Program-made: the position numbers and the translations under genes
The notes under the pieces: generated by a model
Databases searched by the model: none
What the model was told of the DNA's origin: nothing
The model's input: the letters and a program-made list of their open reading frames with translations, nothing else
Shown here: positions 17,568 through 22,953 of the stretch, piece by piece
Layout: each line of letters opens with the position of its first letter
Position numbering within the stretch: the first letter of the stretch is position 1
DNA from: Myxococcales bacterium
Lineage (GTDB): Bacteria; Myxococcota_A; UBA9160; UBA4427
Assembly (NCBI GenBank): GCA_022563535.1
Contig: JADFNE010000016.1
Span: 9,025 to 73,024, forward strand
DNA: 64,000 nucleotides
Reading direction: 5' to 3'

Positions 17568-18818
17568 GTGTTCTTTCGAGACGATCAAATTGGCTGGGAT
17601 GCGCTCGCGATCTCGATGGCCATCATGTTCTTCATCGCCCCCATCATCATGACGGTCCACTTCGCACATCGCGGCGAAGATCCCGCCGGACCGGATCCGC
17701 TGGTGGTACGCGGCGGGGATTTGATTCAGTTCTGGACCGGCGCCGCGGTTCTCGACGCCAACATCCCCTCGCGCAATCTTTACGACCGAGAAGCATTCAG
17801 GGAAGCGTTCAAATCCGTCGAGCGCACAGATGCCAATTCTCGCTACAACCCCACCTACCCGCCCCCGATCTACCAGGGCTTCAATGCCCTCGAGGGCCTG
17901 GGGCAGATTCGCGCCAGCAAGCTCCTGCTCTGGGGGTTCCTGCTCGCCTATGGGCTCGGGATCACGCTCCTGCTGCGCAGCGCAGGTTTGGACTTACCCC
18001 GGGGCACTGAGGGCTGGCTATTGCTCTGGGCTGCGCCGGCCAGCCAGCTCGGGATAGCCACTGGACAGCCCGCGGCGCTCTGGCTCGCGCTGTTGGGAGG
18101 GGGGCTCGCGCTGCGGCAAAGCAAGCGCGACATTCTCGCGGGTATCGTTTTGGGGATCCTCTGCATCAAGCCCACCGTCGCGGCCCCTGTCGCGCTGGCG
18201 CTGGCACTCGCGGCGCAATGGCGCATGGTTGGCGGCTTCGTGCTCGGGGGCGCAGGCGTGCTCGCACTTTCGATCGCGGCGGATGGGATCGAGATCTGGG
18301 CTGGGTATGTCGAGATGCTGTTCGACACCCCCGACCTCACACAGCGGTTGTGGTTTCATCTAAATCGACACGTCAGTTTACGCAGTCTTGTAGCGATGCC
18401 TTTTTCGGGCACGTCGTGGGCTATGCCGGTGGGCGTTGCCGGGGGGGGCGCGGCGTTCGCTTTTGCGCTTTGGCTGCGCGGCAAACTCGCTCCGATCTTC
18501 GCGCGCGACACGCACTCGTTTCCCGCGTTCGCGCTTCTGCTCGGGGCCTGCACCTTCGCCACGCCGCATCTTCTCGACTACGACCTCATTCTCTACTACC
18601 CGATGATGATTTGGGCCGCCTATCGAATCGCAGAGAAGCGCGCCCAACGCGCGCGCGTGGGAATCGCGGCCTTGATTTTCTTTTACATCGTCCCCATCGC
18701 CTATCCGATCTCTGAATGGATTCACTTCAGCGTGGCGAGCCTCGCGCTTCTGCTTCTGTTGGGATGGTGTACTGCCGAGATCGATTTCGGCGGGGGTATC
18801 GAGGCGGATGAAGGGTGA
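17568..18818 (+). CDS. Glycosyltransferase family 87 (GT-C) membrane protein
   Basis: GGDLIQFW, NLYD, YNPTYPP, GQ, IKP, PHLLDYD; about 10 TM segments. Confidence 0.8.
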   Translation: MFFRDDQIGWDALAISMAIMFFIAPIIMTVHFAHRGEDPAGPDPLVVRGGDLIQFWTGAAVLDANIPSRNLYDREAFREAFKSVERTDANSRYNPTYPPPIYQGFNALEGLGQIRASKLLLWGFLLAYGLGITLLLRSAGLDLPRGTEGWLLLWAAPASQLGIATGQPAALWLALLGGGLALRQSKRDILAGIVLGILCIKPTVAAPVALALALAAQWRMVGGFVLGGAGVLALSIAADGIEIWAGYVEMLFDTPDLTQRLWFHLNRHVSLRSLVAMPFSGTSWAMPVGVAGGGAAFAFALWLRGKLAPIFARDTHSFPAFALLLGACTFATPHLLDYDLILYYPMMIWAAYRIAEKRAQRARVGIAALIFFYIVPIAYPISEWIHFSVASLALLLLLGWCTAEIDFGGGIEADEG

Positions 18819-20916
18819 AGCCAAAGGGGCGGATCGGGCCCACGATGGATTCCTCCTGGGATCCGTTCACCTGCTCCTGCTCTGCAATCTCTTCATTGCA
18901 CAGCCCACTTACGACGTACTGAGGCGCAGTCCAGAGTTCTTCTTCGCCCATGACGTGGCTCTCATGGATGTGCTCGTGCTGGTGCTCGTCCTCAGTCTGC
19001 TCATCTCACTCCCGCTGATCGTGGCAACGGGGGTGGCGGGACTCTTCGCAGAGGCGGTGCGCCGCTGGGTTCAGACGCTATTGCTCTTTCTCCTCACCAC
19101 ATGCGGATTGCAACTTGCGCTGCGAAGCAGCGCGACATTTGAAACGCTTGCGATCCCTGTTGCAATTGCGGGCGCGCTTTGCTTCTGCGTCACGTACCGG
19201 CGTTACTTGGCGGTGCGACTGAGCATGACCATGGCGTCCCCCGCGGTGCTCGTGATCGCGACGCTCTTTGTCTGGAACCTGGCCTCTACCGGAATCCTCT
19301 CATCCGTCGCCGAGGTACAGCGATCCGTTCGAATCGATGGCGCCAGCCCGAAGTCGGTCGTGATGATCGTATTCGACCAACTTTCGACCTCCAGCCTGCT
19401 CGGCTCCAACGGCGCGGTTGATCGCACGCGGTTACCGGCGTTTGCTCGACTCGCGGATGATTCGATCTGGTTTCGCAACGCGACCACAGTTGCGGAATCT
19501 ACCGTGACTTCGGTGCCGGCCATCCTGACCGGGCGGTTCCCCGTGGAAGCAAACCCGTTCCCACCACCGAGTTCAGTCGGCTACCCCGAGAACCTGATTG
19601 GCTTCATCGCCTCTTCGCACATGGCCAACGTATCCGAGGAGATCACGCGCTTCTCCCCGCGGAGCATGCGCGAGCCGCCTCCGGACTTCATCCAACGCAG
19701 CACGAGGTTGCTGCGAGACGTCGGCATCGTCTCTGCCCACGTGTTGCTGCCCGAACACTGGCGCTTCGGCATTCCCACGATCGAGGGCGAGGTTGCATTC
19801 TTCGGCCTGCGGGAAGGCGACGCCCTCGATCACGCAAATGCGATGAGCGAGGGAGCCCGGATCGCTCAAGTGTCGCGGTTTCTCGATCGCATGCAGGAGG
19901 TGACGCAAAGCGCCGACGGGCTCGCGCCGACGTTCCATTTCTTGCACATCGTTCTCCCACATACCCCCTACAACTTTCGACCCGACCGCAGTCAATACAC
20001 ACGCCGTTGGTGGGTGCCGGGTTTGCGCAGCAGCTGGGGCTACTGGTACCGCGGCGAGGAGCCTGCTCGCCAAGGCTTGCAGCGCTATCTCCTGCAGCTC
20101 CTGCTCGTAGACACGCTGCTGGGCGAGATTCTCGACCGCATGCAGGCACTCGGTCTATACGACGATTCACTGCTGCTCGTCACTGCGGACCACGGATCCA
20201 GCTTCACACCAAAAGCTCACTCGCGTGCGATCACTCCTGAAACCCGAACGGACGTTCTTTACGTCCCGCTTTTCTTGAAGCTCCCGGGCAAAAGGCAGGG
20301 AATCAACGATGACCGCAACGCACAAACGGTAGACATCCTGCCGACGATCGCAGACTTCATTGATGTTCCACTGCCCTGGTCCGTGGATGGACGCTCGCTA
20401 CTCGCGGCCCCACAGACGATGCCCAAGGAAAAGCATGCCTTTATCACCGTTGGATACCGGGGACTGAAGGCCTTCGACGCAACCGATGGAGGAGAGTTTC
20501 ACTCTCTTGTGCCCATGATGGAGAGACTGGTCTACGAGCCTGAACGACGCTGGCTGCGGCTCGCGAGTTCCCGTGACGATCTCTTGGGGCAAAGCCTGAA
20601 GGAGATCGAAGGCCAACTCGAGTCCTCTGGCAAACTTCCTTTGATTCTCTTCGGAGCCGATGAAGCGACGGACGATTCGGACGCCGTCTTCGAATTGCGC
20701 TCTGGATGGATCCAGGGTCAGATTGAAGCGCCCCCCGGGCAGCTACATCATCAGTGGGACGTCGTCATCGCGGTTGAGGGCAAAGTCCGGGCGGTGACGC
20801 GCAGCTTCCGGATCCGGCGCACAAAGCACTATTTCGCAGCGCTGCTGGCTACTGAAGACATTCCAAAAGGCAGCGGCGAGGTCGAAGTTCGAATCTTGAA
20901 GGACGAACGAGAGTAG
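18808..20916 (+). CDS. Membrane-anchored alkaline-phosphatase-superfamily (sulfatase-like/LtaS-like) transferase
   Basis: About 5 N-terminal TMs, VMIVFDQ, T..SVPAILTG (Thr nucleophile, no CxPxR), HIVLPHTPY, VTADHG, VDILPTI. Confidence 0.8.
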   Translation: MKGEAKGADRAHDGFLLGSVHLLLLCNLFIAQPTYDVLRRSPEFFFAHDVALMDVLVLVLVLSLLISLPLIVATGVAGLFAEAVRRWVQTLLLFLLTTCGLQLALRSSATFETLAIPVAIAGALCFCVTYRRYLAVRLSMTMASPAVLVIATLFVWNLASTGILSSVAEVQRSVRIDGASPKSVVMIVFDQLSTSSLLGSNGAVDRTRLPAFARLADDSIWFRNATTVAESTVTSVPAILTGRFPVEANPFPPPSSVGYPENLIGFIASSHMANVSEEITRFSPRSMREPPPDFIQRSTRLLRDVGIVSAHVLLPEHWRFGIPTIEGEVAFFGLREGDALDHANAMSEGARIAQVSRFLDRMQEVTQSADGLAPTFHFLHIVLPHTPYNFRPDRSQYTRRWWVPGLRSSWGYWYRGEEPARQGLQRYLLQLLLVDTLLGEILDRMQALGLYDDSLLLVTADHGSSFTPKAHSRAITPETRTDVLYVPLFLKLPGKRQGINDDRNAQTVDILPTIADFIDVPLPWSVDGRSLLAAPQTMPKEKHAFITVGYRGLKAFDATDGGEFHSLVPMMERLVYEPERRWLRLASSRDDLLGQSLKEIEGQLESSGKLPLILFGADEATDDSDAVFELRSGWIQGQIEAPPGQLHHQWDVVIAVEGKVRAVTRSFRIRRTKHYFAALLATEDIPKGSGEVEVRILKDERE

Positions 20917-20974: not shown

Positions 20975-21514
20975 TCAGCCCTGCCCCGTCAGCTTCGCCA
21001 CGATCTCGTCGATGGCCTTGTCCGCGATCTGCACCATCTCTTCATCCGTGCGGTCCTGGATGGGATGTTCGGTAAAGACGGGTGAGGCTTCGAAGCCAAG
21101 CGACCGGGCTTGCGATGCTGCCGCGCTGACGAACTCGTTCGAGGCGATGAAGACCGACGCTACGCCCTGCTCTTCCAGTGCTTTCGTGTCGTGCACACTG
21201 CACGACGTGCAGCTGCCTCAGTCCGCCAGGGCTTCGACCACCGCCGCGCACTCGTTGGCAATTTGCTGACGCAGGTCGAAGGGTGCGGGTTTCGTGAAGG
21301 TCGGCTTGCGGAAGCGCTTGATCAGGGCGCCGCGTTTGGTCAGCTCGGCTTCGAGGCGATCGAGGAAAATGTCGCCCCGGGCCTTTGAGATGTCGAGCAG
21401 ACCAATGGTCAGTCCCTCGATTGTTTCAGGTCGCGGGATTCGTTCGCGTTGAACGAGAGCCTGTTCGCCGGTCGGGTCGAGGATCACCCGTTCTGCTTCG
21501 GTGTGTGCGCTCAT
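20975..21514 (-). CDS. UGSC-family selenoprotein (179 aa, Sec at codon 99 = TGA 21218-21220)
   Basis: ORFs 21218..21514 and 20975..21196 are in one frame, separated only by TGA: EALAD-U-GSCTSCSVHD; hairpin follows the UGA; ATG 21514 overlaps the upstream stop. Confidence 0.88.
21188..21206 (-). promoter_or_regulatory. Putative bacterial SECIS hairpin
   Basis: GTCGTGCA-GTG-TGCACGAC, 8-bp stem starting 11 nt after the UGA, G-U in the loop. Confidence 0.7.
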
Positions 21515-22953
21515 GCTTGAACCTCCTTCAAGATCACTTGACTTCCCATCTCGCCGCCCACCCAGCCTGCGATGACCGCTGAAAAAAGACCCGCCGAGCC
21601 ACCGCAGTGCACGATGTATATGCCACCGGGCCGAAACTTCGGAACCGTTTCCACGGAGATCGGTCCCTGGGTACCCTCGGCCATGCCGCCAGCGCCGCGC
21701 AATAGTTCTTCGCTGGGAATGGCGCACAACTCGTGCAAGCGCGCGGTCAATTGAGCTTTATCCCAGCCGGCTTCCGCAAAGATCCGGGCGTGTTCCGGCG
21801 ACACGAGCAGCAGGCAGTCAAAAGCCAACACGATCTTTGGGTGGTAGAGCCCGCGCAGGGTCGCGGCAAAACTGCGCGACAAAGATTCGGGTTCGCGCGA
21901 AAGCTGATCGAGGATGGTGCGGGGCCCTTCCCCGGGAAATAGCGTCACGGTGTCGCGCCCCGCCTCGGAACCGAGATCGACGGACAGCGGCTGCCAGGGA
22001 GAATCTTCTTCGTTTTCGGCGATGCAGAATCCCAATTTTCCGGGGTGTCCGAAGACGGCGCGATCGACTTCTCCGGGTCGGCCCCCGCCGACGTTTCGCA
22101 CCACCAACTGCAACGCCCGTCCAATGGTCGCATTGGCACGGTTTCCCTGGCCCAGGGAATTCACTCCGGAATTCATTCCGAGTCGCTTTCGGATCGGGCC
22201 GTTGACGATCAATACCGGCCCAGCACTCAGCGTCGTGGCCAGCAGGCCATGCATGTTGAATTGGTCCGTGCAGGCAGCTTCGACTGCGGCGAGGACAAGC
22301 GGGAGATATTCGGGACGACAACCTGCCATGACTGCATTGATCGCGACTTTCTCGACCGTGCACTCGACCAGGTCCGAGGGCACCACGGCCACCACTTCGT
22401 CGGGTTTGCGCGCCGTCCCTTCGAGCATGGCGAGCACGCGCTTTTCGGTCGGGGGAACCAATGGCAAGCCATCGCTGAAGCCGTGGCCGTAGAGTGCTTC
22501 GATATCGTCTTCGAGTCGCGCCAATGGGATGCGTCGAGAGCGCAGGGTGTCGACTCCGAAGCGCAGCAACAAATCTGTCGCGTGCTCGGGGTCGACCGAG
22601 AGCGAACCGCAGCCGGGCCGCATTGCGGGCAGGTCTGCGCCGAGCCCCCTCATACCGCTGAGGGCTTCCCATTCTTCGCGGTGCCAGCCGAGCACACGTT
22701 CTTTCTCGATGCCGTCTTCGATCCGCAGCAACGTGGGAACAGCTTCGATGTTTTGATGCCAGGAAACTTCGAGGGAGCAGTCGTCCGAAACCTCGATATC
22801 ACTGGGAAAGTCGGGATCGTCTTGACTGTAGACCGTGAGCGCGCCGCCCTGGGCTAGCTGTCGCAAGACCGGGGCCACCAATTCGCAGGTAGGGCAATCT
22901 CGCTTTACGAACGCGACGATGCCGTTGGGTAGCGGTGCACTCGATCGAACCAC
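21511..22953 (-). CDS. Thioredoxin-fold (CPTC) domain fused to a large uncharacterised domain; partner of the UGSC protein
   Basis: VKRDCPTC, AVPTL, RPGCGS, then DGLPLVPPT, VEKVAINAVMAGC, GNRANATIGRA, AENEE; GTG 22953 with GGAGG RBS. Confidence 0.85.
   Translation of the reverse strand: MVRSSAPLPNGIVAFVKRDCPTCELVAPVLRQLAQGGALTVYSQDDPDFPSDIEVSDDCSLEVSWHQNIEAVPTLLRIEDGIEKERVLGWHREEWEALSGMRGLGADLPAMRPGCGSLSVDPEHATDLLLRFGVDTLRSRRIPLARLEDDIEALYGHGFSDGLPLVPPTEKRVLAMLEGTARKPDEVVAVVPSDLVECTVEKVAINAVMAGCRPEYLPLVLAAVEAACTDQFNMHGLLATTLSAGPVLIVNGPIRKRLGMNSGVNSLGQGNRANATIGRALQLVVRNVGGGRPGEVDRAVFGHPGKLGFCIAENEEDSPWQPLSVDLGSEAGRDTVTLFPGEGPRTILDQLSREPESLSRSFAATLRGLYHPKIVLAFDCLLLVSPEHARIFAEAGWDKAQLTARLHELCAIPSEELLRGAGGMAEGTQGPISVETVPKFRPGGIYIVHCGGSAGLFSAVIAGWVGGEMGSQVILKEVQA

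Follow-up and report, generated by a model that had tools for sequence, protein, structure and literature searches.

The window, by which we mean the whole 64,000-nucleotide stretch of DNA analysed here, almost certainly carries one UGSC-family gene with an in-frame TGA that is very likely read as selenocysteine. The gene lies on the minus strand and is probably co-translated with a partner gene immediately upstream. The following features are referred to below.

20975-21514, minus strand: UGSC-family selenoprotein gene, 179 aa, ATG start, terminal TGA at 20977-20975
21188-21206, minus strand: candidate SECIS hairpin, 8-bp stem with a 3-nt GUG loop 19 nt after the UGA, proposed from conservation, covariation and geometry
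21218-21220, minus strand: in-frame TGA, codon 99, very likely selenocysteine, at a conserved TGA/Cys site
21511-22953, minus strand: partner gene, 480 aa, GTG start, a thioredoxin-like domain followed by an 'Unknown_1' (DGLP-motif) domain
21514-22587, minus strand: 358-aa core of the 'Unknown_1' domain, in which the motifs DGLPxxPPT, AGC (Cys212 of the full protein), RAN and GRA are near-invariant
21522-21528, minus strand: AAGGAGG, resembling a Shine-Dalgarno sequence, 7 nt upstream of the UGSC start codon and within the end of the partner gene
22588-22953, minus strand: thioredoxin-like domain at the N-terminus of the partner, containing C20-P-T-C23 and matching TIGR01068 at E 3.6e-5, short of the cut-off

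Read on the minus strand from 21514 to 20975, the frame comprises 98 amino acids, the TGA (21220-21218), 80 further amino acids and the terminal TGA. Translation verified the original prediction that an in-frame TGA joins two open reading frames into one of 179 aa, and the frame and codons quoted there were correct; the strand had been left unstated. An ORF caller reported the halves as separate ORFs. The read-through protein contains the motif U99-G-S-C102-T-S-C105 and scores above cut-off with both the NCBIfam UGSC model NF041046 (148.4 bits, cut-off 125) and Pfam PF24696 (147.7 bits, cut-off 25), in agreement with the family assignment made earlier from the letters alone. Taken separately, the halves score 50.1 and 76.8 bits with NF041046, at model positions 2-68 and 70-147. 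Since only the read-through frame passes the NF041046 cut-off, we conclude that this is one gene and not two. Standard annotation had been expected to split it, and the gene calls of 113 of the best 120 database matches do indeed end at the residue before the UGA. The closest relatives are from Myxococcota metagenome-assembled genomes (81–84% identity), and UGSC was found in 51 of the 61 genomes of the same order. The copy in the window is an ordinary family member with no distinguishing feature, one of the UxxCxxC clade, in which the partner bears its own thioredoxin domain; both genes are single copy in this genome. On the plus strand, a GT87 glycosyltransferase gene and a membrane sulfatase-like gene (17568-20916) converge on the UGSC operon with a 58-nt gap; clustering of the neighbourhoods of 95 loci did not find these two conserved beside UGSC elsewhere. 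A search of the window against Rfam gave no match at the gathering score.

Comparison of homologues makes it very likely that the codon-99 TGA is read as selenocysteine. The TGA is present in all 109 loci that align over residue 99 (115 loci from several phyla were searched, and a few genomes are present twice), and Cys occupies the site in all of the best 120 sister-subfamily matches to a natural Cys homologue. The Cys expected opposite U99 was also seen as a TGC codon in four locus genes and in the database proteins P0005 and P0006. A non-Cys residue at this position had been named as evidence against selenocysteine; here natural homologues have Cys, and W, R or G occur at the protein level in three single-contig database proteins (P0003, P0004 and P0034). 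Each of these three residues could have arisen from TGA by a single base change, and the best database matches further include one deletion and one frameshift. Among the UGSC matches listed from genomes of the same order, each has one TGA except eight, namely four full-length Cys forms and four that are fragments or weak. On a tree of 43 rows the Sec/Cys label switches six times, with at least four of the switches forced by strong branches. Positions 99, 100 and 102 are invariant across 87 UGSC sequences and S101, T103 and S106 are conserved at 90% or above; other subfamilies have W, S, G, R or Y in place of C105. Residues G100-S106 precede the GTG of V107, the earliest codon past the UGA at which translation might restart, and since they show this conservation although upstream of any restart we infer that they are translated.

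The machinery for selenocysteine insertion, which the original prediction proposed to look for, was found in the genome (97.9% complete): selA, selB and selD score 540, 283 and 336 bits, all above cut-off, and a tRNA-Sec lies on contig C43. RF2 is present and ordinary genes such as that for pyruvate kinase end in TGA, and a genome-wide reassignment of TGA was therefore rejected. The same genome holds other likely selenoprotein genes. The selD gene on G000:C1 has its own in-frame TGA followed by a hairpin of the UGSC geometry (loop at 20 nt, 8 bp, 3-nt loop), and two DsbA-type UxxC genes with F-Q-U-P-x-C, on G000:C66 and C74 (+), have a geometry identical to that of the UGSC gene (19 nt, 8 bp, 3-nt loop). 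A PrdB-like selenoprotein with U-P-M-C is encoded on G000:C74 (L130:1231-1950, minus strand), again with a similar hairpin; PrdB-like genes occur in 43 of the 61 genomes of the order, with up to five matches each. The window itself contains a second likely selenoprotein gene at 40426-39821 on the minus strand with a TGA at 40393-40391; its read-through product is a DsbA-like protein of 202 aa that scores 129.5 bits with PF01323 and has U-P-W at codon 12. The hairpin after this TGA is weaker than that of UGSC, with 6 bp, −7.5 kcal/mol and its loop at 18 nt.

The 8-bp hairpin described earlier was located at 21206-21188, its stem beginning 11 nt past the UGA. It fits the bacterial SECIS model as published in PMC13188914, and this fit, with the frozen codons and covariation detailed below, upholds the view that a SECIS element lies just 3' of the UGA. 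The 41-nt stretch with the hairpin has a minimum free energy of −12.4 kcal/mol and the hairpin as fitted to the SECIS model one of −10.9 kcal/mol; over four stretches the folding energy was not beyond chance (z from +0.58 to −1.09). Geometry is similarly weak evidence by itself, a loose SECIS model fitting 787 of the 13,330 TGAs of the genome; a strict one, defined after the UGSC hairpin had been seen, fits 23. The same geometry check found no such hairpin at the terminal TGAs of the UGSC and partner genes. It is by conservation, not by energy, that the hairpin is beyond chance in our sequence comparisons. Among 91 distinct genes of the UxxCxxC clade, codons +6, +7 and +8 are fixed (TGC in 91/91, AGT in 91/91 and GTG in 90/90), so that the same one of six Ser codons is used at +7 in every gene; outside the stem the commonest synonymous codon mostly accounts for 39–86%, Ile codons reaching 92–96%. 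The hairpin codons are thus frozen across phyla. In an alignment of 98 distinct 42-nt rows, 95.4% of stem cells pair, slid controls pairing at 4–59%, and double changes are seen at four of the eight stem pairs; 12 rows have G-C instead of C-G at the pair adjoining the top one, and the encoded amino acids change on both arms with it. The covariation score was reached by none of 500 shuffles, a figure that kinship among the rows inflates and that is therefore not a probability. All eight pairs are kept in 84 of 113 TGA genes, and the four Cys genes keep 4, 5, 6 and 8. The divergent TGA paralogues L120, L124, L125, L127 and L129 keep only four to six of the eight, and some divergent TGA paralogues have no G-first loop in the same register; such paralogues may use a shifted hairpin.

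The start of the UGSC gene overlaps the stop of the partner gene (ATGA, 21514-21511), and the GTG start of the latter agrees with a 480-aa database protein of 98% identity. The partner accompanies UGSC on the same strand in 123 of 126 UGSC matches (109 just upstream, 8 just downstream and 6 further off or fused); the three matches without it have 38, 755 and 1473 nt of upstream sequence. One of the 126 (L119:4486-6249) is itself a 588-aa UGSC-partner fusion with C-U-G-S-C, and a fusion of the Unknown_1 domain to UGSC was published in 2008 (PMC2398784). The partner family is large, with 5297 clusters at 50% identity. Among its best 150 representatives, 84 stand alone, 31 carry a thioredoxin-type domain, 12 are tandem duplicates and 23 are fusions, 18 in the order UGSC+partner and five in the order partner+UGSC, a subset of which was confirmed by Pfam. 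The upstream partner gene, which the original prediction did not mention, is the real handle on UGSC function. Some relatives have many divergent UGSC paralogues, each with a partner paralogue (seven matches in G027 and six in G059).

The partner gave no match to Pfam and, at E<=0.01, only weak thioredoxin matches to NCBIfam. Its N-terminal domain matches thioredoxin structures by sequence at a best E of 0.002, and CxxC is present in 81 of the 84 homologous thioredoxin domains parsed. The Unknown_1 core has no Pfam family and agrees by eye with the Unknown_1 alignment in Fig. S1A of PMC2398784, where the domain is listed for Mycobacterium leprae and Methanothermobacter. A protein atlas gave for the partner unnamed clusters only, and one cluster of which 16% of members carry PF24696; one atlas cluster is commonest in Methanobacteriota. 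A single Cys is conserved family-wide (94%), in a glycine-rich motif. A third Cys in UGSC accompanies the Trx-fused partner in 85 of 92 genes as against none of 23 without the fusion, a pattern that comes largely from one clade and not from independent events. We saw seven apparent internal stops in partner genes, all of them gene ends or starts and none at a conserved position, and hence no sign of selenocysteine there. Neighbourhood clustering of 95 loci found neither a third gene shared across phyla beside the pair nor a cysteine desulfurase or sulfurtransferase gene conserved nearby; the next neighbour clusters comprise at most 38 loci, mostly actinobacterial, and the window is in none of them.

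In the UGSC structure model, built from 87 sequences (pLDDT 95.0), five strand-helix units follow one another with no beta-hairpin, and residue 99 marks where helix 100-115 begins. The model thus predicts a flavodoxin-like (beta-alpha)5 fold rather than a thioredoxin-like one. A thioredoxin fold runs beta-alpha-beta and then through a beta-beta-alpha unit with a beta-hairpin, an order of elements that this model, as a prediction and not a solved structure, does not follow. Its structural matches are flavodoxin-like and Rossmann-type domains. The top one, at Z 11.5 and rmsd 3.3 over 133 residues, is chain H of the activation complex of methyl-coenzyme M reductase. Since this match is tied with sugar-binding and other unrelated domains (Z 10.5–11.2), it indicates the fold class only and no function. 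Thioredoxins are absent among the listed fold matches, an absence that proves no different or new fold. For the partner model (150 sequences, pLDDT 94.6), none of 48,161 chains matched at Z>=5, which likewise proves no new fold. Its best neighbours are class I Fe-S fumarate hydratases (Z 4.1–4.3, rmsd 5.0–5.6 over 174–191 residues, the top one having Z 4.3 and rmsd 5.6), also matched by Foldseek (E 8.5e-4, TMq 0.30). Searches of solved structures by sequence returned nothing useful for UGSC, the partner core or the PrdB-like family.

The motif of UGSC recalls that of GrdB, which also has UxxCxxC (PMC13188914). At E<=0.05, 63 of 87 UGSC members match GrdF (best E 2.8e-6), 55 match GrdB and 11 match PrdB. 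Compared by hhalign with one true GrdB (L162), the UGSC profile aligned over 78 columns with U on U (92.7%, E 4.2e-7), also pairing the two Cys after it, the turn E-x-x-G-x-P and an H-P further on; two subfamily HMMs scored 17.2 and 17.5 bits with this protein, against a maximum of 6.5 bits in 2000 shuffles. The comparison covers this single GrdB sequence and the NCBIfam models, over some 78 columns around the motif. On the GrdB/GrdF/GrdH models UGSC reaches 14.3–16.8 bits, far from the cut-offs of 602–800. From these comparisons UGSC itself is no GrdB, although a distant kinship with the GrdB Sec domain is probable. PrdB-like proteins resemble UGSC only weakly (hhalign 41.9%, E 2.7e-4), and HMM cross-searches between the two gave no match at E<0.01. 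The full-length GrdB-type selenoprotein L162 (G283:C182:3910-5214) is unusual for its group, being present in one of 301 genomes of the phylum, and a search of 200 genomes gave none; TIGR01918 at E<=1e-25 had no match in the genome of the window.

In proline reductase, PrdA holds the substrate and the PrdB Sec attacks it (PMC11229817). Reasoning by analogy, we give about even chances to UGSC and its partner forming a two-subunit, thioredoxin-recycled selenium reductase with UGSC as the small Sec subunit. From established knowledge, SelB on the hairpin would deliver Sec-tRNA to codon 99. The Unknown_1 domain of the partner would, as in GrdB/PrdB systems, bind and activate a small substrate, and the selenolate of U99 could then attack it, breaking a carbon-heteroatom or sulfur-heteroatom bond. 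C102 would resolve the adduct to leave an Se-S bond, which C105 and the CPTC thioredoxin domain of the partner might re-reduce, with cellular thioredoxin reductase feeding that domain.

Other explanations bear either on the TGA or on what the pair does. That the TGA is a true stop (because there are two small genes, the gene is a pseudogene or the sequence contains an error), or that every TGA is read as a residue, is highly improbable. Gene callers do cut the protein in nearly all of the best matches, 557 of 1004 long open frames in this genome end in TGA, more than in any other stop, and the hairpin alone is not unusually stable. A true stop is nevertheless hard to reconcile with the same TGA at every aligned locus from several phyla, Cys in homologues, and a frozen, covarying hairpin that is absent at the terminal TGAs of both genes; RF2 and the pyruvate kinase stop speak against reassignment. 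As for function, UGSC and its partner could instead be a metal or Fe-S enzyme (a lyase, dehydratase or maturation factor) with U99, C102, C105 and the partner Cys as ligands, a reading we regard as unlikely. The fumarate hydratases found for the partner in both structure searches and the methyl-coenzyme M reductase activation complex found for UGSC point this way, yet both matches are within the range of common arrangements, the replacements of C105 in other subfamilies and the one family-wide Cys of the partner are difficult to square with a ligand set, and the fused CxxC thioredoxin domain suggests thiol recycling. The alpha subunit of class I fumarate hydratase has three Fe-S cysteines, and the partner one family-wide Cys.

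Somewhat less likely again is that UGSC is a stand-alone general thioredoxin-type thiol/peroxide oxidoreductase, the view taken in PMC2398784, with the partner a client or a co-regulated gene. The position of UxxC at a helix N-terminus in the UGSC model would agree with this. Such a position is the usual arrangement in thiol oxidoreductases. However, the confident alternation of strand and helix and the flavodoxin-like and Rossmann-type matches of the model do not favour it, and near-constant pairing with fusion in both orders would not be expected of it. We consider it more doubtful still that UGSC is a sulfur or selenium carrier, holding a persulfide or selenopersulfide on U99 for a partner that inserts or removes sulfur. 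A small alpha/beta domain exposing its nucleophile where a helix begins would suit such a role, as would the one conserved partner Cys in its glycine-rich motif, but the 95 loci have no conserved desulfurase or sulfurtransferase gene nearby and the invariant C102 fits a resolving role.

The UGSC family has been in print since 2007–2008 (PMC1976440, PMC2398784) and recurs in PMC7539508 and PMC13188914; in the Global Ocean Sampling data it ranked with the most abundant selenoproteins, at 255 sequences in 37 samples (PMC2398784, Table 2). Its description as named yet functionally uncharacterised holds, the family having its own NCBIfam and Pfam models and a 2026 review calling its function largely uncharacterised (PMC13188914). 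The predicted flavodoxin-like fold disagrees with the Trx-like fold guessed in PMC2398784. In CC-licensed PMC and bioRxiv text, a scope that does not prove absence, we found no statement of a UGSC-GrdB link or of a model-based UGSC fold. For this one gene, what follows is a routine correction of the annotation; the UGSC family matters more, and the weight lies in a testable two-gene module, not in the hidden UGA. The locus is a compact test case, with one UGSC gene and one partner bearing a thioredoxin domain, and natural Cys versions of UGSC, which need no recoding, can stand in for it in expression. The size of the partner family and its lack of a Pfam model and of a solved match at Z>=5 make it a good target for structure determination.

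Returning to the selenium reductase reading, we tentatively extend it, at less than even confidence, to the proposal that UGSC and Unknown_1 constitute a further branch, the third and a very widespread one, among selenoenzymes of the glycine/proline-reductase type. It would combine a minimal GrdB-like Sec domain, a substrate-binding subunit of unsolved fold in place of the pyruvoyl subunit, and a built-in thioredoxin, with paralogous pairs acting on different organic substrates. GrdB, GrdF and GrdH (TIGR01917, NF040794, TIGR01918) share with UGSC the UxxCxxC motif and, in the proposed reductase, the division into a Sec subunit and a larger subunit, but are about 435 aa long against 179 aa for UGSC. 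The UGSC partner, moreover, matches no Pfam or NCBIfam reductase model and is therefore not a pyruvoyl proprotein of the GrdE/PrdA type. PrdB and stand-alone PrdB-like proteins resemble UGSC in having UxxC followed by a similar helix-strand unit, whereas PrdB works with PrdA and no PrdA-like partner adjoins UGSC. The Trx-, Prx- and DsbA-like UxxC selenoproteins, finally, have UxxC at a helix start in common with UGSC, and differ in placing it in a thioredoxin fold where UGSC is predicted to be flavodoxin-like (beta-alpha)5.
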